Shown in pieces: positions 1-11,727 of a DNA stretch of 11,727 nt. The DNA lies in assembly GCA_029856525.1 (NCBI GenBank), contig JAHQXC010000039.1, positions 1-11,727 of the forward strand. Direction: 5' to 3'. The stretch comes from Candidatus Odinarchaeia archaeon. GTDB taxonomy: Archaea > Asgardarchaeota > Odinarchaeia > Odinarchaeales > Odinarchaeaceae. Made by a program: the position numbers and the translations under genes. The notes under the pieces are model-generated. The model made no database searches and was not told the DNA's origin. It saw only the letters and a list, made by a program, of their open reading frames with translations. The stretch's first letter is position 1; the number at the start of each line of letters is the position of its first letter.

Positions 1-495
1 CGGTAACATGATTCTTGTTTTTGGATCCACCCATACCGAAGGGTAACTATTGACTACAGTAGCCTGTATCCTGTACGCCCTCTTGAGAGCTAAGCCTTTT
101 TGTGCTACATCTGATGATAAAACATATCTGTCGCCAGTCTTCAGAAAGCCCTTTTTAATAAGCTCTGTACGCACCCTGTTCTGCCATGCCCCTGCAATTA
201 TATTACCACTTATCGCGTTTGTGACCATCTTCAAGCCATATTTAGAATAATTCCTTAAGACACTTTCAGCTTGAGCCGGTTCTAGGTTCAATAAAACTAT
301 ATCGAAGCTTTCTTCTAGAGCAGTCGGTACAAGTGTAGCATCATACCCTCTTCTGTTTACAAAACTGACTACCGATTGCAGAAAAGCTCTTCTTTCAATT
401 CTCTTTTCGATATTTAAGGATTCAAACCTGATAAAGCATCCTTTAACGTTGATTGGGACTGGTTGTTGCGATTTAAAAATGTTCGTATATGTCAT
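1..495 (-). CDS. ago: Putative long prokaryotic Argonaute, N-terminal 165 aa (N and L1 domains); runs off the left edge of the window
   Basis: Hand translation from ATG at 495 has no stop to position 1: MTYTNIFKSQQPVPINVKG...RTELIKKGFLKTGDRYVLSSDVAQKGLALKRAYRIQATVVNSYPSVWVDPKTRIMLP. The N-terminal TNIF resembles the TNHF/ANFF first strand of Ago/Piwi. GFLKTGDRYV...RAYRIQATVVNSYPSVWVDPKTRIM resembles the N-to-L1 segment (PIWI-like QQIGRNYY...PGFTTSI...IMLCTDVSHKV; TtAgo-like LLEVDPAYRIL). It starts 1 nt after the upstream stop. PAZ/MID/PIWI are outside the window. Confidence 0.68.
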   Translation of the reverse strand, partial: MTYTNIFKSQQPVPINVKGCFIRFESLNIEKRIERRAFLQSVVSFVNRRGYDATLVPTALEESFDIVLLNLEPAQAESVLRNYSKYGLKMVTNAISGNIIAGAWQNRVRTELIKKGFLKTGDRYVLSSDVAQKGLALKRAYRIQATVVNSYPSVWVDPKTRIMLP

Positions 496-496
496 A

Positions 497-1201
497 CTAC
501 ATCAACTTCCTTTGGAACGATTCAAACTTGAGAGAAGGGCCGATTATTTTTTCCACAACATATTTAAGAGTCACTATCTGCTGTTCAAAAGTAAAGCCAG
601 AATTGTAGATCGTAATTATTCCCCTTTTATCAAAACCTACTCTCGCCTCCTCGGGTATTTCTTTCAACCTCACTTTCACTTTGCTTAATGGTTCGCCTCC
701 ATAGTCCTCATAGAATTCTGTACTAATTATTTCACGTCCGATACACGAAATCCTGTCTACACGATCCATGCCTGGAATAACGTCTAGCTGGGAAACATCC
801 GGACATTTCTCGATAACGCTCCGCAACGCGCTTTCATCGAATTTTACTTTGCTAAGAACAAAATCACTTATAAAGTGCCTCTCTATGAAGTTAATGACTC
901 GTTGTTCTATGTCCTTTGTGCAGTTGCCTATTAATAAGAAGTTTTCTTCAAGAAGAAATATTATCGGAATCTCGCGGGATGCCTTAACAGACTTCTGTCC
1001 TTCAAGGGTTGAATAGGTGAGCTCATATTCGAAAGTAAACATGAACCCGATTGATCCATTGACAACTGCTAGTGTGTCAGGTAATGTACCTTCGCGAAAT
1101 TCCTTTTTATCCTCTATAGCAGGGAATGACTTGACTTTTTCAGTTATTTCCTTAACATCAATTTTCATCCTGGGCAGGGGAATAAGTACATAGCTAGGCA
1201 A
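497..1201 (-). CDS. Hypothetical protein (~234 aa), alternating alpha/beta pattern reminiscent of RdgC/DUF4747/KwaB-like folds
   Basis: Track ORF 497..1210. AGGAGG (1211-1216) directly abuts the GTG at 1210, so the in-frame TTG at 1201 (9-nt spacing) is the more likely start. It overlaps the ATPase stop. The fold remark is inference from hydrophobic patterning only. Confidence 0.8.
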   Translation of the reverse strand: MPSYVLIPLPRMKIDVKEITEKVKSFPAIEDKKEFREGTLPDTLAVVNGSIGFMFTFEYELTYSTLEGQKSVKASREIPIIFLLEENFLLIGNCTKDIEQRVINFIERHFISDFVLSKVKFDESALRSVIEKCPDVSQLDVIPGMDRVDRISCIGREIISTEFYEDYGGEPLSKVKVRLKEIPEEARVGFDKRGIITIYNSGFTFEQQIVTLKYVVEKIIGPSLKFESFQRKLM

Positions 1202-2315
1202 GATATTCACCCTCCTGCATGATTTTTAATTGGATGAGAGGTTTTACCTCATCTTTTATGCGGTAAAAATATGAACGCCCAATTCTTTCGAGTTTAATAA
1301 ATTTGCTTCTATTCAGTATTCCAAGGTGATAGGAAACAGTAGCTTTGTCTTTTTCAAGAATCTCCACCAGTTTTGAAGGCCGCAGTCCACGTTCATCACG
1401 CTCTAATAATATATGCTTGAGAATGAGAATCTGGAGTTCTGATAGTTTGCTTACTCTGTCAAAAAAGTTCTCAATGCCCATGGTTCTAGCTGCTAACTCA
1501 ACAGCTGTTTCGTTGATGTTTTTAGAGCGAGCAAGGAAGGCTTCGCTGAAGGTTCTTATGAAGAGCCCTATAGTCAACTTTGGGATCCCATAGCTAAACG
1601 AGTGAATCTTTTCAATAACTTCCGTCTTGAGCTGAAACTTACCGTCACTTACATACTTCAGAATAACTGAAATGAAATGAGAGGTCGCAGCCTCGTCAAG
1701 AGGTTCTATGTGGATTTCTTGGGAAGTTTCAAGACATTCTTCTACTTCGTCTTTAAATAAATTCCAATGTTCTGGTGTCCAAGACGTAATGACAACACCA
1801 TTTTTAAGTATGTTAGCAATCTGTCTTAATGAATTCACTATGTCCTTGTCTTTCTCACATGAATCTATAAATATGACATCAAGATGTTCCCTTTTGAGTT
1901 CGTCCAAAACCCGATAAAGTACCTGCTCCTCTTCTTCTCCTTCTAAAATTTCACTAAACTTTGACGCATCTATCAGTTGATGTTTAAGGGAGATGTTTCT
2001 TTCCTGGAGAAACGATTTTGTCAATTGAATAAGATGACTTTTTCCAGAGCCGACTACTCCCACAATAGGGATGTGATAGATTTCGCTTTTTTCTTTACTG
2101 TAGAAGCCGATAAATTGACCTATTACCTCAATTTCCTTTTCTAGGTTGACGGTAAATTCTGGATTTTCGAGCAAGTATTTCGAAATAGTTTCCACACTGA
2201 ACTTTAATGGATTAATCCCAAGTGATTTAAGCCATACATTAAAGCTTTCGACCTCTCCACTTAATCCTTTTTCGAAAGCTTTTTCAAATGCTTCAAACAG
2301 TCTTCCTTTTTTCAT
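1194..2315 (-). CDS. ExeA/GspA- or Cdc6-like AAA+ ATPase with C-terminal ArsR-type winged helix-turn-helix
   Basis: N-terminal WLKSLGINPLKF (ExeA-like GLxxNPF); Walker A GVVGSGKS (2037-2060); Walker B-like VIFIDS (1860-1877); lid motif IHSFSYGIPKL...AVELAA; C-terminal LSELQILIL...PSKLVEILEKDKATVSYHLGILNRSKFIKLERIGRSYFYRI wHTH. Confidence 0.85.
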   Translation of the reverse strand: MKKGRLFEAFEKAFEKGLSGEVESFNVWLKSLGINPLKFSVETISKYLLENPEFTVNLEKEIEVIGQFIGFYSKEKSEIYHIPIVGVVGSGKSHLIQLTKSFLQERNISLKHQLIDASKFSEILEGEEEEQVLYRVLDELKREHLDVIFIDSCEKDKDIVNSLRQIANILKNGVVITSWTPEHWNLFKDEVEECLETSQEIHIEPLDEAATSHFISVILKYVSDGKFQLKTEVIEKIHSFSYGIPKLTIGLFIRTFSEAFLARSKNINETAVELAARTMGIENFFDRVSKLSELQILILKHILLERDERGLRPSKLVEILEKDKATVSYHLGILNRSKFIKLERIGRSYFYRIKDEVKPLIQLKIMQEGEYLA

Positions 2316-2332
2316 GCTAATCTAACCGTTCA

Positions 2333-2348
2333 AACTATTAAAATAGTT
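2333..2348. promoter_or_regulatory. Inverted repeat AACTATT-AA-AATAGTT, candidate operator of the ATPase-wHTH operon
   Basis: Perfect 7-bp inverted repeat with a 2-nt spacer between the TATA box and the ATG at 2315. AT-rich, so a chance occurrence is possible. Confidence 0.4.
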
Positions 2349-2358
2349 AAAACTAAAA

Positions 2359-2366
2359 TATTTAAA
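2359..2366 (-). promoter_or_regulatory. TATA box (TTTAAATA) for the ATPase-orphan-Argonaute operon
   Basis: Consensus archaeal TTTAWATA on the minus strand, 43 nt upstream of the ATG at 2315. Confidence 0.55.
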
Positions 2367-2411
2367 GTTATCGCTTTTAACGCGACGATATGCGAAGGGT
2401 TAAATGTTTGC

Positions 2412-2437
2412 GGCGCTCATGCCATACTATGAGCGCC
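2412..2437. repeat. Perfect 9-bp inverted repeat GGCGCTCAT / ATGAGCGCC with 8-nt loop, covering the IS110 start codon
   Basis: Arms at 2412-2420 and 2429-2437 are exact reverse complements. Confidence 0.75.
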
Positions 2438-2527
2438 TATATTGGTTTGGATGTGCACAAGGATTGGACTTTCGCTACTGTCCTCGACCAAGATGGTCGA
2501 GTTGTTGTTTAGAGGAAGCTAGCGAAG
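2429..2527 (+). pseudogene. IS110-family (DEDD RuvC-like) transposase N-terminal remnant
   Basis: ATG 2429 reads MSAYIGLDVHKDWTFATVLDQDGRVVV*RKLAK, matching the IS110 N-terminal pattern Y(V/I)G(I/L)DVHK...a.vld.dG.vv. There is an in-frame TAG at 2510-2512 and similarity is lost after ~2527. Confidence 0.8.
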
Positions 2528-2712
2528 ATTCAAATCTGGATTCTACTTCTTATATCCGCACCATTAATAGAATCTGTTGTTATAGGCTTATCATTGAACT
2601 ATTCTAAGAGAGCTTTGAAACCTTTTTATTTGGTATCGTTCTGATTGGAGTGTGAGGATAGTCCTAGGTTAAATATGTTGGAAACGTATTTTAATTCACA
2701 GGCGGCGTGATA

Positions 2713-2721
2713 TTATAAATA
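2713..2721 (+). promoter_or_regulatory. TATA box (TTATAAATA) for the zinc-ribbon protein gene
   Basis: TATA-like element 36 nt upstream of the TTG at 2758; SD GGAGGTGG at 2746-2753. Confidence 0.45.
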
Positions 2722-2757
2722 CTGGTTTTGTTTTAATTAAATTCTGGAGGTGGAAGT

Positions 2758-3813
2758 TTGACTAGGGAGCTTAAAGTATATGAAGTCGACGAGTTTGATA
2801 AATGCCCTAACTGCGGGGGTGAGATTTATCGGGGTCGTTTGAATTGTAGATGGGGGATGATTTTCTACTATCGTTTAAAACATGATCTTCTACTTGATAA
2901 GCATGGGCGTCCTATTATTTTTGAAGAAAACGTTCGTATCGGAAACCCTGTTAAAAGCCGATTCGATCATGCTGCTATATGCAGGAATTGCCTTTTTTTA
3001 TTTTTTAAAGCTATTAATTACGATCCGCTTAGAAAAGGTTTTGAAGAACGTTTTAACAAGACGCGAAAAGAACTTTACAAGAAGGCGGTGGAGGAGTCTA
3101 AGAAGCCATTAAATTTTGATAAATGCCCGGTTTGCGGTAATAAAATAGATAAAGGGTATTTATGTGATAATCCTCCTTCAGGCTGCACACCCGGGTTAGT
3201 CTTCTATATGCAGCTGGATAAGCCTATCGGAGGGAGAAAAGAGGAGCCGATTGTTGTAGCCCAAGACTTTCTAGGACATTTCTATGAGGCATATTTCTGT
3301 GATACCTGTTTCACAGCTATCGGTAGAATAGAGAAATTCCTCCCCTTCGCCGATGATTTCTGGGATCGTTTTGAAGCCCCTTCTAAATCAACAGTTATTA
3401 AATTAGAACGCCGGCTTGAAAGGTTAGATCAGTTAGAAAATCTTCAAAACCCTGAAAGAGGGGTAGACGCGGGTTTATCAGAGGCTAGAAAAGAATTTGA
3501 AGAGTATGAGAATCCGATTGAAGAGGATTCTGAAGACCGCTTATTAGAATCTGTTCTCGATGAAATCTCAATAGGCGGCGGAGACATCCCTGAATTTAAA
3601 GTTGAAGATTCAAATGAACGTGTTAAATCAAATGATATCGGTGTCGATGGTCTTGAACTGGAGCCTAAACTACCCTACGAGTATCTTCCTTCAGTGAAAT
3701 CCTGCCTTGAGCCACCTGACAGGTTTCAGTTCTGTCCTAATTGCGGTGTCGAGAACAGTTCTAAGCAAAATGTATGCCGGAAATGCGGGACTGAATTGCC
3801 CTCAATCAAATAA
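2758..3813 (+). CDS. Multi-zinc-ribbon protein: two DUF6487-like CPxCG...CxxC modules, acidic linker, C-terminal double zinc ribbon
   Basis: FDKCPNCGG...AICRNC and FDKCPVCGN...YFCDTC repeats; E/D-rich linker; C-terminal CPNCGVENSSKQNVCRKCG; TTG start with a strong SD. Confidence 0.8.
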   Translation: MTRELKVYEVDEFDKCPNCGGEIYRGRLNCRWGMIFYYRLKHDLLLDKHGRPIIFEENVRIGNPVKSRFDHAAICRNCLFLFFKAINYDPLRKGFEERFNKTRKELYKKAVEESKKPLNFDKCPVCGNKIDKGYLCDNPPSGCTPGLVFYMQLDKPIGGRKEEPIVVAQDFLGHFYEAYFCDTCFTAIGRIEKFLPFADDFWDRFEAPSKSTVIKLERRLERLDQLENLQNPERGVDAGLSEARKEFEEYENPIEEDSEDRLLESVLDEISIGGGDIPEFKVEDSNERVKSNDIGVDGLELEPKLPYEYLPSVKSCLEPPDRFQFCPNCGVENSSKQNVCRKCGTELPSIK

Positions 3814-3996
3814 TTGTGCATATATCTCATAATTTTTTTCAACCGCTTCCATAATTTTTTTACCAATATTCGAATTCTTTTTAATAATCGTGTAACCTTT
3901 TTGATTTATAGTAGCATCGAAAATATGGTTGCCTTCTATATAGAATTTTAGACGTGTATTCGAGAGGTCAGGTCTCACATATATTCGAATTTTTTT
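3802..3996 (-). CDS. C-terminal domain of the PINA ATPase, encoded in the -1 frame after an A9 run
   Basis: Frame is bounded by TAA (3997-3999) and TGA (3802-3804) and reads KKIRIYVRPDLSNTRLKFYIEGNHIFDATINQKGYTIIKKNSNIGKKIMEAVEKNYEIYAQLFD. This resembles the PINA-family C-terminal pattern v.iyv....lFtATv.kkG.i.ikK.S.iGk.l..A. Confidence 0.7.
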   Translation of the reverse strand, partial: KKIRIYVRPDLSNTRLKFYIEGNHIFDATINQKGYTIIKKNSNIGKKIMEAVEKNYEIYAQLFD

Positions 3997-5423
3997 TTAA
4001 GGGGTTTAACTTTAACTTTAATGTTATCTTTCACTTTCTGAGAGCTGCGGCTTGTTTTCAACTCTTTATCTGAGATTAAAGGTATGACGACAACCTCTTC
4101 GCCGTAACTGTATACCTCATATTCTAAACGGTTTGTTTCGAAGTCTCTAACTTCTATAACAGGTCTAGCTAAATCCGCTTGAACCATTCCGGTGGGAATT
4201 TTAACAGTTGTACTTATAGCGTACACTTTTCTAATCTCGCCTTCTTCTATAAATATTATAGTGTCTAGAACTCTGCTAATCAATCCTAATTCAATTCTAC
4301 CTATAAATCTTTGAAGAGCGTCTATCGGTTGGCTTGCATGAACAACGCCGATCATGTTAACACCGCTGAATCTTAAATCAGCGTATATTTTGAAATCATT
4401 AGTTTTACGCATTTCATCGTATATCACGTAGTCAGGTCTTACAAGAAGAAGTATATCAGCTGTTTTCTCCATGCTATCGCTCAACGGTGAGTATTGAGTT
4501 ATATCTGGGCCTACTTGTAAGTCTCTCGGGCTCTCCATGGTCTTCACAATCTTACCTTTACTAGCATAGTATTCAGCTAAAGCCGCGCTGAATGTGCTTT
4601 TACCAGCTCCAGGCGGTCCGGCTATTAAAATTCCTTCAGCTCTTTTTTCAAGCCTTGACTCTAATTTACTAGATAAGTTATACGCTTTCAGATCGACTTT
4701 AACTATAGGCTTCACCGCTGTTATCTCTAAGCCGTCTGAAAAAGGCGGTCTAGCTATAACTATTCTCATATTCCCTAACTGGATAACCGTTGCTGCGGGT
4801 TCATCGATTTCGATAAAACTATCCTTCTCTTTTAAAGCTCTTTCATATATTTGTAAAGCTATATCTCTGAGAAGCTCACCTTCCACAGGTTTATCAGATA
4901 ATTCAACCAGTCTCCAATCACCAGGACTCCCCTTCTTAGCCTTCGGTGGAACCCCCTCTCTTAGATGAACTGACATCGTATCGCTGTCGAAAAATTTTTC
5001 AAGATCTAGCTTTAATGCTTTACCCGGTTTAGCTACATAATTAACTTTAACCCCTTTAATCTCAGCTATATCCGCTTGAACTCTATCACTCGTATATAAT
5101 TCAGCTGAATTCTCTTCAGCGCATTTAATTATTATCTCATCTAGTTCCCCGCTAGGTCCAAGCTTTACTTCCTCTAAAGTCGGTCTAGCCCCAACTATTT
5201 CGACTAATATGTCGCCTTTAGTTGAAAGCTCTCTTAGTTTTTTTAATTCAACTAATCCAGCGAAGCCCGCTGGTTTATGTAAATTCGCCTGGTTCTCTAT
5301 TTCAGCTATAACAGCGTTTGGAATAAGAATCTTACAGTTTTTTAATTCCCCTTTCTCTATGGTTTGCGAAATATATCCGTCTATTATGATGCTAGTATCA
5401 GGTACTATTTTTCTAAAATTCAA
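3975..5423 (-). CDS. PINc/VapC-family ATPase (PINA; PIN domain plus PilT-like ATPase), apparently frameshifted near the 3' end
   Basis: PIN start IVPDTSIIIDG...IPNAVIAEIENQAN; Walker A GPPGAGKSTF; TMESPRDLQV; Walker B YVIYDEMR; GVVHASQPIDALQRFIGR. The TTG start overlaps the hisS stop by 4 nt. Confidence 0.92.
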   Translation of the reverse strand: MNFRKIVPDTSIIIDGYISQTIEKGELKNCKILIPNAVIAEIENQANLHKPAGFAGLVELKKLRELSTKGDILVEIVGARPTLEEVKLGPSGELDEIIIKCAEENSAELYTSDRVQADIAEIKGVKVNYVAKPGKALKLDLEKFFDSDTMSVHLREGVPPKAKKGSPGDWRLVELSDKPVEGELLRDIALQIYERALKEKDSFIEIDEPAATVIQLGNMRIVIARPPFSDGLEITAVKPIVKVDLKAYNLSSKLESRLEKRAEGILIAGPPGAGKSTFSAALAEYYASKGKIVKTMESPRDLQVGPDITQYSPLSDSMEKTADILLLVRPDYVIYDEMRKTNDFKIYADLRFSGVNMIGVVHASQPIDALQRFIGRIELGLISRVLDTIIFIEEGEIRKVYAISTTVKIPTGMVQADLARPVIEVRDFETNRLEYEVYSYGEEVVVIPLISDKELKTSRSSQKVKDNIKVKVKPLKKKFEYM

Positions 5424-6727
5424 TACCGGTTCACCACAGGTGTGAGTATACTACTAATCTCCTCAACATTTATTGTATGCTGTTCCCCGCTATCAAGTTT
5501 TTTAACAGTGACTTTATTCTCTTTCTCCTCTTTTTCCCCTATAAATATTATAATACTGTAATTATTACTAACCGCATAGGAGAGTGCTCTTTTAATGTTT
5601 CTTCTCAAAACATCGACTTCTGTTTTATACCCTAATTCTCTAATTTTACTAGCTGTAATAAAACAGGCGGGTATTTGCCTCGGAGTTAACGGGGTTATTA
5701 GTATTTTTTTCTCAAGTGGTTTTCTGAATAAGTTTCTCTCATCCATAGCGATTATTAAACGATCTATACCCGCTGCAAAGCCTACTGCAGGTGTATGCTC
5801 TCCGCCGAATAATTCTACAAGCTTATCATATCTGCCACCGCCGCCGACTGCTATGTCAAGTCCTTCGACAAATATTTCGAAGATGAGCCCTGTATAGTAT
5901 TCTAACCCCCGCGCGAGGCTCATATCCACTTCTATTTTTTTAAAAATATCTAATTTTGATAACAACTGGAGTATTATAGTAAACTTCTCAACTTCTCCTA
6001 ATACTTCAGGATACTCTGATAATAGATTATTTAACTGGTTTATTATCGTAGTATACTCTTTTCCCTTTAAATTTAATATATTATAAAATAATTTTACCGC
6101 GTTCTCTGGAATATTATTCTCTTTCATAATTTCCTCTATTTTACCCATCTCTCTCTTATCTAATAAACCTAGTATTGTATCTTGTAATTCGTCAGGAATT
6201 TTTATAACACTGAAAAAGCTTCTAAGCACGCCTATATGCCCTATTTTTATTTTAAACTCTGTGAAACCGAGCTTCCCCATTAGATCATATGCGATGTTAA
6301 GGATTTCAATATCGCTCTCAGGGTAGTCTGAGCCGAATAACTCGAACCCTGCTTGCCAGAACTCTCTATATCTCCCTCTCTGAGGGTTATCATACCTGTA
6401 ACAGGTGCCTATATACCCTAATCTTACAGGTTTAGGCGCGCTTCTCATCAAGTTTTCTATATATAATCTAGCTATAGGAGCGGTCATTTCAGGTCTTAAA
6501 GCTAAAAGCCTCCCTCCTTTATCTTCGAATACAAACATTTTCTCCCTTATCTCCGCGCCGGCTTTAGCTGCTACCAGATCAAAAAACTCAACTATAGGTG
6601 TGGATACTTCATCATAATTATACTTATAATATAATTCTCTAACTATGCTGTTAACGTAGTTTAACCTCCACCTGTCTTCTTTTAAGTAGTCTCTCATTCC
6701 TCTAACCGTTCTAAACATTTTACTCAA
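5420..6727 (-). CDS. hisS: Histidyl-tRNA synthetase
   Basis: VRGMRDY; LALRPEMTAPIAR; YRYDNPQRGRYREFWQAGFE (class II motif 2); LARGLEYYTG; GGGGRYDKL; C-terminal anticodon-binding domain; TTG start with GGTGG SD. Confidence 0.98.
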   Translation of the reverse strand: MSKMFRTVRGMRDYLKEDRWRLNYVNSIVRELYYKYNYDEVSTPIVEFFDLVAAKAGAEIREKMFVFEDKGGRLLALRPEMTAPIARLYIENLMRSAPKPVRLGYIGTCYRYDNPQRGRYREFWQAGFELFGSDYPESDIEILNIAYDLMGKLGFTEFKIKIGHIGVLRSFFSVIKIPDELQDTILGLLDKREMGKIEEIMKENNIPENAVKLFYNILNLKGKEYTTIINQLNNLLSEYPEVLGEVEKFTIILQLLSKLDIFKKIEVDMSLARGLEYYTGLIFEIFVEGLDIAVGGGGRYDKLVELFGGEHTPAVGFAAGIDRLIIAMDERNLFRKPLEKKILITPLTPRQIPACFITASKIRELGYKTEVDVLRRNIKRALSYAVSNNYSIIIFIGEKEEKENKVTVKKLDSGEQHTINVEEISSILTPVVNRY

Positions 6728-6773
6728 TTAAACCACCGGTTTTCTTAAAAATAATAGAGTATTACTCGTATTT

Positions 6774-7337
6774 TTAAAGTTCCACCTCTGAAACAAAATA
6801 ATATGTAGGCTCACCCTGCCGGTCCACTACCGCCAGAGCGGTCTTCTTCCTTGAACTAGCGCCTATTGAAATAATTTTCTCAAGATCAATCAATGCTAAA
6901 GGTATTCCCTCCTCTATCACATATATTAAATATTTTGCAGCCTCTTCGTTCGGAACCGCGCCTCTCTCATAAACTCTAAAATCCATGTCCCCTTCATACC
7001 CTAATCCTACAGTATACCCTCTACTACGTAGATCTCTATATACAATGTATTTTGTCCAGATCTTTCGGTCTTTCTTTAAATAGAAGTTGACTAACTGCTT
7101 AAAATCAACAGCGTTTTTACTGGTATCCGTGACTTTTATTTTACCGCGTTCTAATAACAGCAGTGCTTCTAAAGGCGTTAAGTTTAGAACATCTTTTTCA
7201 AAATAACCGTAGTATCCTTTATTATAGATTTCAGTCTTTCTCTCATCGAATATTTTAACTAATCCATTCTCATCTAAAATAGCTTCAACAGGTTCAGCCT
7301 CCTCCTCGGCTTCAACCATCTCCTCATCGCCGCTCAT
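6774..7337 (-). CDS. endA: tRNA splicing endonuclease subunit, probably the non-catalytic structural subunit
   Basis: LTPLEALLLLE; VYRDLRSRGY; DFRVYERG; SRKKTALAVVD...TYY. The catalytic His position (KEHSVY in M. jannaschii EndA) reads EEAAKY. Confidence 0.9.
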   Translation of the reverse strand: MSGDEEMVEAEEEAEPVEAILDENGLVKIFDERKTEIYNKGYYGYFEKDVLNLTPLEALLLLERGKIKVTDTSKNAVDFKQLVNFYLKKDRKIWTKYIVYRDLRSRGYTVGLGYEGDMDFRVYERGAVPNEEAAKYLIYVIEEGIPLALIDLEKIISIGASSRKKTALAVVDRQGEPTYYFVSEVEL

Positions 7338-7490
7338 TTCAACACCTTTAACTTATTTTAAAAACACTTTACTCTTCGAAGATGCATCAAATTAGTATTT
7401 TAAATGAACTCTATAAAACATTAATTAATATTCATTTATACTTATAACTTTAATACTTGCTTAAACTTATGTTAACAGAGTATACTGGGA

Positions 7491-7523
7491 AAGGGAGGCT
7501 CAGCGGCTCTCAGCCTCCTCCTT
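7491..7523. other. GC-rich hairpin in the endA/hycI divergent intergenic region
   Basis: GGAGGCT (7494-7500) pairs with AGCCTCC (7512-7518). It can be extended by AAGG/CCTT in an alternative register with a bulge. Confidence 0.55.
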
Positions 7524-7530
7524 CAATCAC

Positions 7531-7538
7531 TTAAATAT
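7531..7538 (+). promoter_or_regulatory. Candidate TATA box (TTAAATAT) for the hycI-mtnA leader
   Basis: TATA-like octamer ~45 nt upstream of the mini-ORF ATG at 7583. Confidence 0.35.
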
Positions 7539-7582
7539 AGAGTTGAATTACCTGTCTCACTGTCTCTCAGAGGAGTTGAGTT

Positions 7583-7606
7583 ATGAAAACCATTATAGAG
7601 CTTTAA
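7583..7606 (+). CDS. Candidate 7-aa leader ORF MKTIIEL
   Basis: ATG AAA ACC ATT ATA GAG CTT TAA preceded by GAGGAG (7570-7575) at 7-nt spacing. Too short to prove coding. Confidence 0.25.
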   Translation: MKTIIEL

Positions 7607-7646
7607 GCTGCCTGTTGTTTTGAAGTAAACAGGCTTAAAGCTATAA
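7593..7646. other. Long bulged hairpin upstream of hycI (attenuator- or terminator-like)
   Basis: AGCTTTAA (7599-7606) pairs with TTAAAGCT (7635-7642); GCCTGTT (7610-7616) pairs with AACAGGC (7628-7634); 3-nt bulge at 7607-7609. Confidence 0.6.
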
Positions 7647-7668
7647 GCGTTTCACCAAGCAGATTTAA

Positions 7669-8178
7669 ATGAAAAATTCGCGTGGTGGTATTTTGCAGTT
7701 TGAAGAGGAGTTTAATGAAAAATTTAAGGATGTGAAAAGACTTGTCATATTAGGAGTCGGCAATATAATACGCGGGGATGACGGTGTCGGGTCTAAGATT
7801 ATCCGATCGTTGAAAGGTAAACTAGATGAAAGAGTGAAGCTTATAGACGGCGGCCCTGTTCCTGAAAGCTTCACAGATGTTGTTAAAGCATTCAACCCCA
7901 CTCATATTTTAATAATAGACGCCGCGGATATGGGTAAGAAACCAGGTTGGATTGAATTCATAGGCGAAGACCAGATTTTAAACACATCTTTTTCAACTCA
8001 TCAAATGCCTTTAAGCCTTCTAGTAGAGTATTTTAAATACGAGACGAAGAGTAGAATATTTTTATTAGGAATTCAACCATTAACTAATTCGTTTGGAGAA
8101 AAGTTAACTCCAGAGGTGGAGGCAGCGAAGAATCGGATCGTTAAACTAATACTTAAATATTTTAAAAAACCCTCTTAA
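7669..8178 (+). CDS. hycI: Hydrogenase maturation endopeptidase, HycI family
   Basis: LVILGVGNIIRGDDGVG; IDGGPVPE; LIIDAAD; STHQMPL; LLGIQP. An alternative start at TTG 7693 follows GGTGGT. Confidence 0.9.
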   Translation: MKNSRGGILQFEEEFNEKFKDVKRLVILGVGNIIRGDDGVGSKIIRSLKGKLDERVKLIDGGPVPESFTDVVKAFNPTHILIIDAADMGKKPGWIEFIGEDQILNTSFSTHQMPLSLLVEYFKYETKSRIFLLGIQPLTNSFGEKLTPEVEAAKNRIVKLILKYFKKPS

Positions 8179-8182
8179 GGCG

Positions 8183-9451
8183 GTGAAGACTATCCTCGAC
8201 GTTTTAAAAATTCTTAAGAAAAACGGATTCGAATATAATCCTGAACTGTCTCTATATGTTGATTCGAAGACAGGTTTACCGCTCACCTTATTCTTTGACA
8301 GAGACGCTGGCAGATTATTTCTATTAGATCAGTGTAAACTCCCATATGAAGTAGCAGCCTGGTCTACTGATAACTGGTATGAAGCTGCTGTTAAAGGCAT
8401 CAAAGGCATGATAGTTAGAGGCTCGCAAGCTATCGGCGTAGCCGGCGCGTACTCTCTAGCATTAGCATGTATGAGCTTAAATGCTTCGAGTATAAGTGAA
8501 GCTTTAAAAATTCTTTTTGAGAGAGGGGAGATCATCAGATCAGTGCGCCCTACAGCTGTTAATTTAAGCTGGGCTGTCACTAGAATACTTAACAGGATTA
8601 AATCCCGTGAGTTTTCCAGTCTAGCAGATTTAAAGTTAAATGTTTTAGATGAAGCGGATATGATTTTTATAGAAGACTTTATCTTAAATAAAAGTCTTAG
8701 AGCGAATGGTTTACAACTCTTTGAATCCGGGGATGTAGTTTTAACTCATTGTAACGCCGGTTCACTGGCAACTGTTTACGGTGGAAGCGCGCTAAGCATC
8801 CTCTCAGAGGCTTTTCTGAGAGGACGGCGATTAACCGTTGTCTCGAAGGAAACCCGGCCTAGAAGCCAAGGGTTTAAACTTACATTATGGGAGCTTAATA
8901 GAATAGGAATCCCCACGGTCGCGATCACAGATAATATGGTCTCTAAGAGTATAGAACGATTTAAAATTAATAAAATGCTTGTAGGCGCAGATAGAATAAC
9001 CGCAGATGGATATGTTACTAATAAAATAGGCACCTGTGATATAGCGCGAATAGCATACATGGAAAAAATCCCATTCTACGTAGCCGCATCCCACTCTACG
9101 TTAGATTTAGATCATCAACACGGTGAGATACCTATAGAGGAACGGGATAAAGACGAGGTTAGAGCCGTATACGAGTATGAAATTAAGTATATGAGAGATA
9201 AAGGATTATTATCTGAAAGATCTGTTGAAAAATGGCCGCCTGACGATAAAATAACAGATTCAGAGAACCCTATTAATTTTAAGATAAAAATATATAATCC
9301 AGCTTTCGACATAACTCCCGGCGACTATGTTAGTAAAATAATACTTGACATAGGCGTTTACTCTCCTATACGGATAAAGCATCTAACTTCAAGGTTAATA
9401 GATAAGAAAATCAGCCGGATCATTAAAAGCGAGCTAAAAGACTATGATTAA
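8183..9451 (+). CDS. mtnA: Methylthioribose-1-phosphate isomerase (MtnA; eIF-2B-like family)
   Basis: LLDQCKLP; MIVRGSQAIG; RPTAVNLSWA; THCNAGSLAT; ETRPRSQG; VGADRI...NKIGT; YNPAFDITP. GTG start 4 nt after the hycI stop. Confidence 0.88.
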   Translation: MKTILDVLKILKKNGFEYNPELSLYVDSKTGLPLTLFFDRDAGRLFLLDQCKLPYEVAAWSTDNWYEAAVKGIKGMIVRGSQAIGVAGAYSLALACMSLNASSISEALKILFERGEIIRSVRPTAVNLSWAVTRILNRIKSREFSSLADLKLNVLDEADMIFIEDFILNKSLRANGLQLFESGDVVLTHCNAGSLATVYGGSALSILSEAFLRGRRLTVVSKETRPRSQGFKLTLWELNRIGIPTVAITDNMVSKSIERFKINKMLVGADRITADGYVTNKIGTCDIARIAYMEKIPFYVAASHSTLDLDHQHGEIPIEERDKDEVRAVYEYEIKYMRDKGLLSERSVEKWPPDDKITDSENPINFKIKIYNPAFDITPGDYVSKIILDIGVYSPIRIKHLTSRLIDKKISRIIKSELKDYD

Positions 9452-9532
9452 TTTTACACGCGGTATTCACGGTATGAGTTAGGATATTAACAGGTAAATC
9501 TATGAGGCGGAGTTTACTCTAGAAATTGGAAA

Positions 9533-9631
9533 TGGCGCCGGGGGCAGGATTTGAACCCGCGAGGTGCAAAGCACCACTGGCTTTCCTGTCCTCTCTCGAG
9601 GCCAGCGCCTTAACCGCTTGGCTACCCCGGC
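9533..9631 (-). tRNA. tRNA-Ser(CGA) with a 12-nt intron at 37/38 and encoded CCA
   Basis: Minus strand GCCGGGG/CCCCGGC acceptor stem, G73, CCA; CTGGC/GCCAG anticodon stem with CT-CGA-G; long variable arm GGTGC-TTT-GCACC; T arm GCGGG-TTCAAAT-CCTGC. Confidence 0.95.
9583..9594 (-). other. tRNA intron (AGAGGACAGGAA)
   Basis: Removing these 12 nt between G37 and A38 restores a 7-nt anticodon loop CUCGAGA. Confidence 0.85.
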
Positions 9632-9729
9632 ATACGTTACCTAATAAATATATTATTTTACTGGAAATAATAAAACTCTATAAGCGTTCTCTCTTATATT
9701 TTATAGATAAAATTATTAGAGGTATATAT

Positions 9730-10440
9730 ATGAGTTTTGAACTTGAAAAAGAACTTGTAGGTAAACACGCTGCTGAACTAGTGGAAGACGGTCAGGTGAT
9801 CGGTGTAGGCAGCGGGACCACAGTATCTTATTTTATAAAACACCTTGGCGCGCGTTGTAGAAGAGAAGGTCTTAAAATATTGGCGGTTCCCAGCTCTTAT
9901 CAATCCTATTTTGAACTTATCAAAGCCGGTGTTGCTTTAACTACTCTCGACGAGTATGATACTCTCGATTTGACAATCGACGGTGCTGATGAAGTGGATG
10001 AAGATTTAAATCTGATAAAAGGTGGGGGTGGAGCTCTAACCCAGGAAAAAATAATTGGAACATACACTAAGAAGTTAATTATTCTTGTAGATTCATCTAA
10101 ATTTGTTAAGAGAATAGGGGGCGCCCCTATACCAGTTGAAGTTTTACCTAAAGCTTTATCCCCTGTCTATAAAAAAATAGAATCGTTCGGTGGTAAACCT
10201 GAAGTTAGAATGGCTAAGAGAAAACTAGGCCCGGTTGTCACAGATAACGGCAATTTTATTTTAGACTGTAAATTTGAAGAGATAATCGACCCAGAGTCTC
10301 TAAATACGAGAATTAAGATGCTTCCAGGTGTTGTGGAAACCGGCTTATTCATAGGCTTAGCTGATAGGATCCTAATAGGTAAAGAAGGAGCCGTTATTGA
10401 AAAAGTAAAGGAGCGGGCCCGACCGGACTTGAACCGGTGA
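9730..10440 (+). CDS. rpiA: Ribose-5-phosphate isomerase A
   Basis: GVGSGTT; TIDGADEVD; LIKGGGGALTQEK; PIPVEV; VTDNGNFILD; PGVVETGLF. The true start is ATG 9730 (GAGGT SD). The track start at 9526 runs through tRNA-Ser. Confidence 0.97.
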   Translation: MSFELEKELVGKHAAELVEDGQVIGVGSGTTVSYFIKHLGARCRREGLKILAVPSSYQSYFELIKAGVALTTLDEYDTLDLTIDGADEVDEDLNLIKGGGGALTQEKIIGTYTKKLIILVDSSKFVKRIGGAPIPVEVLPKALSPVYKKIESFGGKPEVRMAKRKLGPVVTDNGNFILDCKFEEIIDPESLNTRIKMLPGVVETGLFIGLADRILIGKEGAVIEKVKERARPDLNR

Positions 10441-10488
10441 CCCCTGGCTTAGGAGGCCAGTGCCCTATCCTGGCTAGGCTACGGGCCC
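10414..10488 (-). tRNA. tRNA-Arg(CCT), no encoded CCA
   Basis: Minus strand GGGCCCG/CGGGCCC acceptor stem, G73; CTGGC-CT-CCT-AA-GCCAG anticodon arm; ACCGG-TTCAAGT-CCGGT T arm. Confidence 0.97.
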
Positions 10489-10832
10489 GTTTACATTAGA
10501 TTATTTGAAACACATCTTCCTGTTTACTCTTCGATTAAATATTTTTAAAGTTTTAATTAACATTTTCTAAAATATCTTTAAATTAATGATTCATGACCCT
10601 TATACTCGTTTTAACTATTAGTAGGCTATTTCGCTTTATATAACATTTAACTCTCTCACTGCAGGTGAGTAGCAGTCTTATTTATGAAAATTTTAATTTA
10701 ACTGTTAAAAAAATACTTGGGGCGCATTCTTATAAAACATTGGAATAACGCCGCTTTAAAATCGCATTATTAATAGTATTTTAGTAGAAATATTTTTTAG
10801 ATCATTAAAAATAGTTTTTCCGGGGATCGGAC

Positions 10833-11727
10833 TTGTATATACCTAGATGTATGAGTACTCAACACCCTGATAATGTTAACACTCCTTTCTTCGCTGAGGA
10901 AAGTGAGCTGAGCGGTGAAGATGAAATTCAGGAAGCCTACTATGTATTCTCTCATCTGGGATGCGACGAGCAGATGTGGGATTGTGAAGGTAAGGAAGTC
11001 GATAATTATGTTGTGAAAAAACTGATTACAAAATATCCTTCGTTTTTCACGTCGAAAAGGCTTGGTAGAGATGTCTTCTTAACTTTAAGGGTTCCGAACC
11101 CTGCTGTTGAAGTAGCTGAGGCTAAAATACTTTTAGAAACATTGGAGAGTATCCCCAGATCCTTCGATGCTGCTAAACTGTTTTTCAAAGATGATTTACC
11201 CCCCATTTTTGAAGTGATACTGCCTATGGCGGCTTCAGCTAAATTCATTGATCGAGTTTACAAGTATTACTGTAACTTCGTGGTAGGTAAACAAGATCAG
11301 CCTTTCAGCGAGGGCGATATAACTATAGGTGAATGGGTTGGTAGATTTAAACCTGAGAAAATAAACGTGATACCCTTATTCGAGGATATGAAAAGACTTA
11401 TTGATTGCGATAATATTCTAAGAGAATATTTAAGTGATAAAGACTTCGATTATCAACGCGTATTTTTAGCTAGATCAGATCCAGCTATGAATTACGGGCT
11501 TGTCGCCGCGGTTCTCCTAAATAAGATTGCATTACTCAAGCTTCAAACCCTTTCCGAAGAGTTGAAGCTACCAATATATCCTATTATAGGTGTCGGATCC
11601 CCACCGTTTCGAGGTAATCTAACACCTTTAAACGTTGATAATGTTCTAGCAGAGTATCCTAGTGTTCAAACATTCACGGTTCAATCCGCTTTTAAATACG
11701 ATCACCCACCAAACCAGGTTATAGAAG
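10833..11727 (+). CDS. ppcA: Archaeal-type phosphoenolpyruvate carboxylase (partial, runs off the right edge)
   Basis: Not in the track. TTG 10833 reads MYIPRCMSTQHPDN...QMWDCEGKEVD...RVPNP...FEVILPM...VIPLFED...RVFLARSDPAMNYG...GVGSPPFRG...TVQSAFKYD, with no stop to the window end. Confidence 0.97.
   Translation, partial: MYIPRCMSTQHPDNVNTPFFAEESELSGEDEIQEAYYVFSHLGCDEQMWDCEGKEVDNYVVKKLITKYPSFFTSKRLGRDVFLTLRVPNPAVEVAEAKILLETLESIPRSFDAAKLFFKDDLPPIFEVILPMAASAKFIDRVYKYYCNFVVGKQDQPFSEGDITIGEWVGRFKPEKINVIPLFEDMKRLIDCDNILREYLSDKDFDYQRVFLARSDPAMNYGLVAAVLLNKIALLKLQTLSEELKLPIYPIIGVGSPPFRGNLTPLNVDNVLAEYPSVQTFTVQSAFKYDHPPNQVIE

Follow-up and report, generated by a model that had tools for sequence, protein, structure and literature searches.

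The long-A prokaryotic Argonautes (pAgos), such as VbAgo, CbAgo/CpAgo, TtAgo, KmAgo, and PliAgo, share the full N-L1-PAZ-L2-MID-PIWI fold and are the closest described counterparts of the system analyzed here. CbAgo offers a precedent for the production of small DNA guides from double-strand-break ends by a host resection machine, as its guides depend on the processing of DNA ends by RecBCD (Kuzmenko et al. 2020, bioRxiv 10.1101/2020.03.01.971358). In APACE1, a cyanobacterial long-A pAgo is co-encoded with ACE1, a Cas4-family nuclease of the DNA break repair type that processes its small interfering DNA (siDNA) guides and boosts interference (Mol Cell 2025, PMC12094033). Argonautes of Asgard archaea are polyphyletic, comprise 15 clades, and have been spread by horizontal transfer (PMC11217426). 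Here, we describe an Argonaute gene located at the very start of an 11,727-nucleotide stretch of DNA from a “Candidatus Odinarchaeia” archaeon (GenBank assembly GCA_029856525.1, contig JAHQXC010000039.1, positions 1 to 11,727), referred to below as the window. Positions 1 to 495 encode, on the minus strand, the N domain and L1 linker of a long Argonaute that has the N-L1-PAZ-L2-MID-PIWI architecture and ~770 amino acids (aa) in its relatives, and the gene is preceded by genes for two partner proteins, A and B.

The family formed by this fragment and its full-length homologues resembles the long-A pAgos in fold along the entire chain (structural Z scores of 20 to 22), in the retention of the catalytic D-E-D residues and of a YK-type 5′-phosphate pocket, and in sequence, with VbAgo as the best match. 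It differs from them in that it is only 12 to 15% identical, falls below the Pfam Piwi cut-off, carries an invariant Gln at the fourth position of the catalytic tetrad, and, in its main layout, has obligatory upstream partners A and B. The likeness to APACE1 extends to those family members (loci L018 and L019) that adjoin Cas4-domain helicase-nucleases. However, the partners here are an AAA+/winged helix-turn-helix protein and an orphan protein that looks non-enzymatic, no homologue of ACE1 or ACE2 is encoded in the window, and in place of one small nuclease, the relatives have the complete NurA-HerA-Mre11-Rad50 machine. As for CbAgo, its partnership with RecBCD is not encoded in one operon, and archaea use Mre11-Rad50-HerA-NurA instead of RecBCD.

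With the Asgard Argonautes (asAgos), the gene shares an Asgard host, and its accessory status in Odinarchaeum agrees with their published polyphyly and horizontal spread (PMC11217426). There is no detectable sequence relation to HrAgo1, and the neighbors of the family process DNA ends, whereas those of HrAgo1 are RNase III and a helicase. Finally, the fragment shares an N-L1-type fold with Aga1 of the SiAgo-Aga1-Aga2 system and with the APAZ chains of SPARTA/SPARSA. In the full-length homologues, however, N-L1 is fused to MID-PIWI and a PAZ region is present, so that this is not the two-protein arrangement of the short pAgos with APAZ, and effectors of the membrane, TIR, or SIR2 type are absent here.

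A long Argonaute gene cut by the contig end

A preliminary description of this DNA had reported an unlisted frame at positions 1 to 495 with no stop in the window, quoted its TNIF opening, a GFLKTGDRYV segment, and the terminal residues, and proposed that it codes for the N-L1 part of an Argonaute. In a listing of open reading frames (ORFs) that allows open ends, this frame is found as 165 codons on the minus strand, with an ATG start at 495-493 and no stop up to the window edge. Its translation, which agrees exactly with the quoted segments, starts with MTYTNIF, includes KGFLKTGDRYV, and terminates in KRAYRIQATVVNSYPSVWVDPKTRIMLP. Because the window begins at base 1 of its contig (C61 in our numbering of the host assembly, which comprises 1.32 Mb in 127 contigs and is 93% complete), what interrupts the Argonaute gene is the end of the contig rather than a stop codon. 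Searching the assembly with a full-length homologue, P0003, recovered solely the 1-495 piece, a Pfam Piwi search of the whole host genome gave no match, and comparison of the C61 ends with all other contig ends revealed no overlap that would join C61 to another contig. Two further attempts to find the missing part, by looking up the exact protein sequence of partner B and by scanning metagenome contigs with an exact 44-nucleotide (nt) pattern, also returned no match.

Six proteins of 766 to 777 aa match the fragment with 52 to 57% identity over 99 to 100% of its length (E values of 1e-43 to 1e-57), and an exhaustive search of cluster representatives retrieved 23 relatives at E values of at most 1e-3, with full-length members of 730 to 790 aa. 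The seven residues that are invariant in the family (M1, N5, R35, N106, R109, Y124, and K138) are all kept in the 165-aa fragment. Given that it matches the N-termini of homologues of 763 to 790 aa and retains these residues, the 1-495 frame is not a chance ORF; it is about the first fifth of a long Argonaute gene from a divergent, unannotated clade. Its continuation into PAZ-L2-MID-PIWI is seen in the homologues, and its own contig ends at codon 165.

This Argonaute family escapes annotation by Pfam and NCBIfam. There was no usable Pfam or NCBIfam match for the fragment and neither a Pfam Piwi nor an NCBIfam match for six full-length members, and family members are labeled “hypothetical protein” by NCBI and JGI. 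The PADLOC pAgo model PDLC02436 matches residues ~330 to 757 in all six members tested, with E values from 1e-42 to 1e-51. In PDB, a profile of the family finds the bacterial VbAgo over PAZ-L2-MID (E value of 5e-11) and the silkworm Siwi (E value of 0.007) and does not match HrAgo1. A profile built from the N-terminal 165 aa alone gives only chance matches in PDB (e.g., BMP-2, E > 0.4), with no Argonaute among them.

Predicted structures place both the fragment and its homologues among Argonautes. The AlphaFold2 (AF2) model of P0003 (pLDDT of 79.7 and pTM of 0.76, with low confidence in the C-terminal tail) matches Argonautes along its whole length in Foldseek, with E values of ~1e-30, and aligns in VIA-align with long Argonautes at Z scores of 20 to 22 over model residues 1 to 754-760; Siwi is nominally the top match in both comparisons. 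The aligned ranges are residues 2 to 764 of PliAgo, 3 to 748 of CbAgo, 2 to 737 of KmAgo, 8 to 685 of TtAgo, 152 to 899 of Siwi, and 28 to 817 of HrAgo1. PIWI, HrAgo1, and bacterial pAgos score equally well (Z of 21.5 to 22.1). The short pAgos (SPARTA, SiAgo, and AfAgo) align with the model only from residue ~306. Since long Argonautes align with the model end to end, to residue ~759, and short pAgos do not, the family has the long architecture, in line with the earlier suggestion that this would be a long rather than a short pAgo.

The AF2 model of the fragment itself, built from an alignment of 22 N-termini, has a pLDDT of 91.7 and a pTM of 0.83. Its best Foldseek match is Aga1, the N-L1-like partner in the Sulfolobus SiAgo system (E value of 2.7e-6). 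Next come N-terminal segments of MpAgo, KmAgo, TtAgo, and PIWI proteins as well as APAZ chains, and Argonautes, Argonaute-like folds, or APAZ partners account for 49 of the 50 highest-ranking matches. In VIA-align, residues 1 to 165 of the model superpose on residues 9 to 176 of TtAgo with a Z score of 9.3 and a root mean square deviation of 4.0 Å over 147 aligned residues, and also on KmAgo 3-157, CbAgo 4-179, Siwi 155-314, and Aga1 3-177. As TtAgo residues 1 to 106 presumably constitute the N domain and residues 107 to 167 the L1 linker, the fragment would cover N plus L1. The Z scores are moderate for this model, and the N-L1 assignment draws on the consistency of the matches together with the full-length homologues. 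Thus, the predicted structure indicates that the fragment carries the N and L1 fold of an Argonaute, and the N-L1 proposal stands on these fold matches and on the matches of the homologues to Argonaute hidden Markov models (HMMs).

The profile search that had been suggested for the 165 aa gave no Argonaute match, either in Pfam or in PDB, and the Argonaute N-L1 matches come from the structure. Because the N-terminal profile finds no Argonaute in PDB, resemblances claimed at the level of motifs are not supported. This applies to the proposed alignment of GFLKTGDRYV with the PIWI-clade QQIGRNYY segment, although two residues in this region, G121 and Y124, are conserved within the family.

Predicted active site and guide pocket

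The active site and the MID pocket were read from homologues, with residues numbered as in P0003 and conservation judged across 14 full-length members. Down to 30% identity, all 14 have D524, E559, and D603. In HMM alignments, D524 and E559 fall on CpAgo D544 and E580, which we take to correspond to CbAgo D541 and E577, and the AKDG motif of the family falls on the usual RDG. The fourth tetrad position is occupied by an invariant Gln750, which aligns with the Asp in the “ADKIGE” motif of the SPARTA Argonaute and is anchored by the conserved G-E that follows it; this assignment is provisional because of the low confidence of the C-terminal tail in the model. Canonically, the fourth residue is D, H, or K (PMC6299218), and with Gln in this place, the homologues depart from the canonical DEDX tetrad, a reading that depends on the HMM alignments to CpAgo and the SPARTA Argonaute.

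The MID residues Y441-(R/K)445-Q461-K491 are conserved in the 14 members, with Arg replacing Lys in most of them, and the Y-x3-(R/K) and Q of the family align with the Y-x3-K and Q of VbAgo. Judging from these alignments, the family has a YK-type MID pocket, which would bind the 5′-phosphate of the guide.

Operon with partners A and B

Two genes lie upstream of the Argonaute on the same strand. Gene A (1194 to 2315, minus strand) codes for a 373-aa P-loop AAA+-like NTPase with a C-terminal ArsR-type winged helix, and gene B (497 to 1210, minus strand) codes for a 237-aa protein of an orphan family, with a TAG stop 1 nt before the Argonaute ATG. The two genes overlap by 17 nt and the gap between B and the Argonaute is 1 nt; A, B, and the Argonaute form a translationally coupled operon, in which the Argonaute is the last visible gene. 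The 442-bp spacer at 2316 to 2757, between this operon and a divergent zinc-ribbon gene, is its presumed promoter region. The GC content of the cassette is 0.36 to 0.40, the same as in the remainder of the window. The A-B-Argonaute order is conserved in twelve distinct other loci (among L003 to L008, L013 to L017, L024, L025, and L027).

Protein A matches AAA_22, HTH_5, and HTH_20 in Pfam and the ArsR and DnaA/Hda-like models in NCBIfam. In some members of the A family, an Arg takes the place of the Walker A Lys, and the Walker B motif retains only its Asp. Protein B has no match in Pfam or NCBIfam, and its gene is conserved immediately before that of the Argonaute in 11 other loci. Its invariant residues are exclusively Gly, Pro, and hydrophobic, none of them of the catalytic type, and it therefore looks non-enzymatic. 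A PADLOC match of B to SduA (E value of 0.004) was set aside, as none of the conserved residues of B is acidic, Lys, or His. An ESM Atlas feature search with B returned unnamed clusters, and an RdgC-labeled cluster at rank 78 (score of 0.80) is too weak to use. Prediction of a complex of B with a full-length Argonaute yielded a score of 0.00, which gives no verdict and is evidence neither way.

DNA-end-resection genes in related loci

Members of this family are recurrently co-encoded with DNA-end-resection enzymes, and the linkage takes four layouts. In the main one, found in loci L003 to L008, L013 to L017, and L027, A-B-Argonaute is followed after 10 to 15 nt by NurA-HerA-Mre11-Rad50. These loci come from metagenome contigs and from metagenome-assembled genomes (MAGs) of Nitrososphaerales and Bathyarchaeota, with Argonaute identities down to 30%. 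Other gene orders that link the Argonaute with resection genes are seen in L018, L024, L025, and L030. Halobellus clavatus and a gammaproteobacterial MAG share the same eight-gene block, A-B-Argonaute-Mre11-Rad50-NurA-(207 aa)-HerA. The Bathyarchaeia MAG locus (L018, 12318-18432) is devoid of A and B and has the Argonaute followed by a Cas4-domain superfamily 1 helicase-nuclease and then by Mre11-Rad50. The scaffold of Haloquadratum walsbyi J07HQW1 (L030, 2979-11434) has Mre11-Rad50-A-B-Argonaute, with a partial A and a partial, 448-aa Argonaute. In addition, the Argonaute is followed by a UvrD/PD-(D/E)xK AddA-like helicase-nuclease in a Hydrothermarchaeota MAG, and radA lies just upstream of it on an Archaeoglobus contig. 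The same order as in the main layout is found for a distant Asgard Argonaute with 23% identity to the family and a profile E value of 1.7e-29 on MID-PIWI (L048, contig G040:C25, ~1386-9900, minus strand, in a 4.5-Mb genome), which directly precedes NurA-HerA-Mre11-Rad50.

In the family tree, the resection-linked members are scattered over several branches, and the most divergent branch is among these. Another Rad50 and another NurA are encoded elsewhere in the Halobellus clavatus genome, so the Argonaute-linked resection set of this haloarchaeon is a dedicated one. No Rad50 other than the linked one is apparent in the Bathyarchaeota genome G003. The upstream flanks vary between loci and include integrase/ParB, NotI and other restriction-modification genes, and GmrSD, a variety that is typical of defense islands. 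A search of an available literature library found no paper that combines pAgo or Argonaute with a Mre11/Rad50/HerA/NurA operon, and Ryazansky 2018 does not mention Mre11, Rad50, HerA, or NurA.

Several details of these loci deserve a record. A conserved protein of ~206 aa that belongs to no family is encoded between NurA and HerA in both eight-gene blocks (L025:17605-18228 and L024:12084-12701). The Argonautes that adjoin the AddA-like gene (L019:12378-15380) and RadA (L022:7737-8741) are without the A-B partners. The L030 scaffold contains runs of N, and the truncations there may be assembly gaps rather than decay. In L012 (6901-7916) and in L023, from Dehalococcoidia, genes for an XRE-type helix-turn-helix protein and a Peptidase_M78 (ImmA/IrrE-like) protein precede the Argonaute, in a defense-island setting with GmrSD, a ubiquitin-like E1/E2/JAB system, and helicases. 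Two divergent loci, L003 (5090-6009, split in two) and L013 (5077-6123), have an orc1/cdc6 gene directly before gene A, which itself codes for an AAA+/winged-helix protein.

Host and distribution

The histidyl-tRNA synthetase (HisRS) encoded in the window is 87% identical to that of “Candidatus Odinarchaeum yellowstonii,” and the next matches come from Odinarchaeia and then from other Asgard lineages. These matches identify the host as an Odinarchaeum species, which agrees with the Asgard origin that the preliminary description had considered as a condition. The Argonaute gene is found in none of 40 relatives, including three genomes of the same genus, and among 400 genomes of the phylum, there is one other true family member besides the host. 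Elsewhere, the family is represented in Nitrososphaerales (Nitrososphaerota), Bathyarchaeia, Hydrothermarchaeota, Archaeoglobales, haloarchaea, and one Thorarchaeota MAG, as well as in two bacteria, the Dehalococcoidia and gammaproteobacterial MAGs. A search of a plasmid collection with the Halobellus member gave no match. With this patchy distribution and same-genus genomes that do not have it, the cassette is best described as an accessory, horizontally acquired module.

Two same-genus genomes (L037 and L041) share the EndA-HisRS-PIN/ATPase-zinc-ribbon genes with the window, at 82 to 90% protein identity. On the left side of the zinc-ribbon gene, a paralogue of it and other genes stand in place of A-B-Argonaute in these genomes. 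The A-B-Argonaute site is a variable locus, and in the host assembly, this region is fragmented into small contigs (C101, C40, and C97).

The host assembly holds a single nurA-herA-mre11-rad50 operon, on contig C120, which opens inside nurA. A placement of the Argonaute directly before this operon was considered and rejected by synteny, because contig C88 carries the start of nurA together with its native upstream genes. The gene is split between the two contigs, C88 ending 13 to 14 codons in and C120 resuming at about codon 66, with a gap of ~151 nt by synteny, and the DNA upstream of nurA in two same-genus genomes corresponds to host contigs C33, C108, and C88. Contigs C88 and C108 overlap by 102 nt. 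In the closed chromosome of the same genus, the resection operon is hundreds of kilobases away from the counterparts of the genes that flank the cassette in the window.

Proposed role and alternatives

The window probably encodes an accessory long Argonaute of an A-B operon that is loaded with a guide and directed against invader DNA together with A, B, and resection enzymes. In such a mechanism, the Argonaute would load a 5′-phosphorylated small nucleic-acid guide, and the loaded protein would act on complementary invader DNA, working with A, B, and DNA-end-resection enzymes. For most relatives, the latter would be NurA-HerA-Mre11-Rad50; for others, they would be helicase-nucleases of the AddA-like or Dna2-like kind. 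These enzymes might supply guides from DNA ends, finish the degradation of the cut target, or both, a role that is modeled on the CbAgo-RecBCD and APACE1 precedents.

Several observations weigh against this proposal. Nuclease activity of the Argonaute is uncertain, because its fourth tetrad residue is outside the canonical D/H/K set. The family scores below the Pfam Piwi gathering cut-off of 28.9 bits, with 24.6 bits at best, for the Halobellus clavatus member. The MID-PIWI part of the Odinarchaeum protein is not in the assembly, and its catalysis is deduced from homologues that are 52 to 57% identical in the N-terminal part. In this host, adjacency of the Argonaute to resection genes is not supported, as the operon retains its native upstream neighbor and lies elsewhere in the same-genus genomes. 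In several thermophilic relatives, the adjacent resection set is apparently the sole copy, and the linkage could therefore partly reflect insertion beside a housekeeping operon.

A more specific version, in which this clade, A, B, and Mre11-Rad50-HerA-NurA make up a single machine with a D-E-D-Q active site and the Odinarchaeum copy relies on the unlinked resection operon of its host, can be put forward only tentatively. If true, the resection enzymes would both make guides from the ends of invader DNA and destroy the cleaved targets, and the system would correspond, in archaea and within one operon, to the RecBCD-pAgo partnership.

The principal rival to a guide-loaded, cleaving Argonaute is suggested by the Gln at the fourth tetrad position. 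In this scenario, the Argonaute is a catalytically dead sensor, like the long-B and short pAgos, and guide-directed target binding activates or recruits A, B, and the resection nucleases, which do the damage. Besides the invariant Gln in place of D, H, or K (PMC6299218), such a sensor would account for the strict conservation and translational coupling of the partner genes, given that inactive pAgos generally need co-encoded effectors (PMC12094033, introduction). However, the invariance of D524, E559, and D603 down to 30% identity is unusual for an inactive PIWI domain, B has no conserved catalytic-type residues, and the Walker A motif of A does not always have its Lys, all of which makes a dead sensor rather unlikely.

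The abundance of repair genes in the neighborhoods could also mean that the module serves chromosome maintenance, i.e., double-strand-break repair, recombination, or replication termination, and not defense. Family members adjoin NurA-HerA-Mre11-Rad50, RadA, and AddA-like or Dna2-like genes, the adjacent resection operon looks like the sole copy in some relatives, and orc1/cdc6 is just upstream in L003 and L013. This explanation is less satisfactory for a gene that is present in 0 of 40 relatives and in 2 of 400 genomes of the phylum, including the host. Nor does it fit the other loci, with their restriction-modification systems, GmrSD, and integrase as neighbors, the dedicated second Rad50/NurA set in Halobellus, or the transfer of the whole block to a gammaproteobacterium. 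The patchiness, the defense neighbors, the dedicated set, and the transfer are better accommodated by a mobile defense module than by a core function, and we consider a role in maintenance improbable.

It is even less probable that the Argonaute of this Odinarchaeum is a decaying, non-functional remnant that is truncated or disrupted just past the contig end. The assembly does break inside the gene, no MID-PIWI is found anywhere in the 93%-complete assembly, and a partial copy exists in Haloquadratum (L030). Yet the frame runs without interruption through all 165 codons and retains each invariant residue of the family, the upstream A and B are full length, and the splitting of the surrounding assembly into many small contigs points to assembly problems, not decay.

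Finally, a specific relationship to eukaryotic PIWI/AGO, as for HrAgo1, with relevance to the origin of RNA silencing, is suggested by the Asgard host, by the Thorarchaeota family member, and by the nominal top rank of Siwi in Foldseek and VIA-align but is very improbable, considering the tied structural scores of PIWI, HrAgo1, and bacterial pAgos, the far better sequence match to VbAgo than to Siwi (5e-11 versus 0.007) with HrAgo1 unmatched, a membership drawn mostly from Nitrososphaerota, Bathyarchaeia, Archaeoglobi, and haloarchaea plus two bacterial MAGs and rare in Asgard, and neighbors that process DNA, unlike the RNase III and the helicase that accompany HrAgo1 (PMC11217426). With the structural scores tied and a bacterial protein as the best sequence match, no preference of the family for eukaryotic Ago/Piwi is seen in these comparisons. 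The gene is also missing from same-genus genomes, nothing points to a PIWI-clade or eukaryote-like position, and as far as the evidence goes, the locus has no bearing on the origin of eukaryotic RNA silencing.

The significance of the family lies elsewhere. Guides are obtained by means of RecBCD or AddAB in bacteria and of ACE1 in some cyanobacteria. For archaeal Argonautes, their source is an open question, and a clade that is repeatedly co-encoded with the archaeal equivalent (Mre11-Rad50-HerA-NurA or AddA/Dna2-like enzymes) makes it directly testable, and one of its members is in the cultured Halobellus clavatus. For annotation, a “hypothetical” ORF at a contig edge can now be described as the N-terminus of an Argonaute, and an accessory Argonaute module, absent from the closed chromosome of “Ca. 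O. yellowstonii,” is now seen in an Odinarchaeum species.

Other features of the window

The zinc-ribbon gene (2758-3813, plus strand), divergent from the Argonaute operon, codes for a 351-aa protein with two DUF6487-like units, an acidic linker, and a C-terminal Zn_Ribbon_1 domain. It is probably outside the cassette, because it is conserved in the same-genus genomes. ARAGORN predicts two tRNA genes on the minus strand. The first, at 9533-9631, is 99 nt long, has an unusual anticodon loop, and is probably an archaeal tRNA with an intron; the second, at 10413-10488, is a tRNA-Arg(CCT). The listed ORF at 9526-10440 begins by translating across the first tRNA (GAGFEPAR), and the start of the ribose-5-phosphate isomerase that it encodes is probably an internal Met (MSFELEKE).

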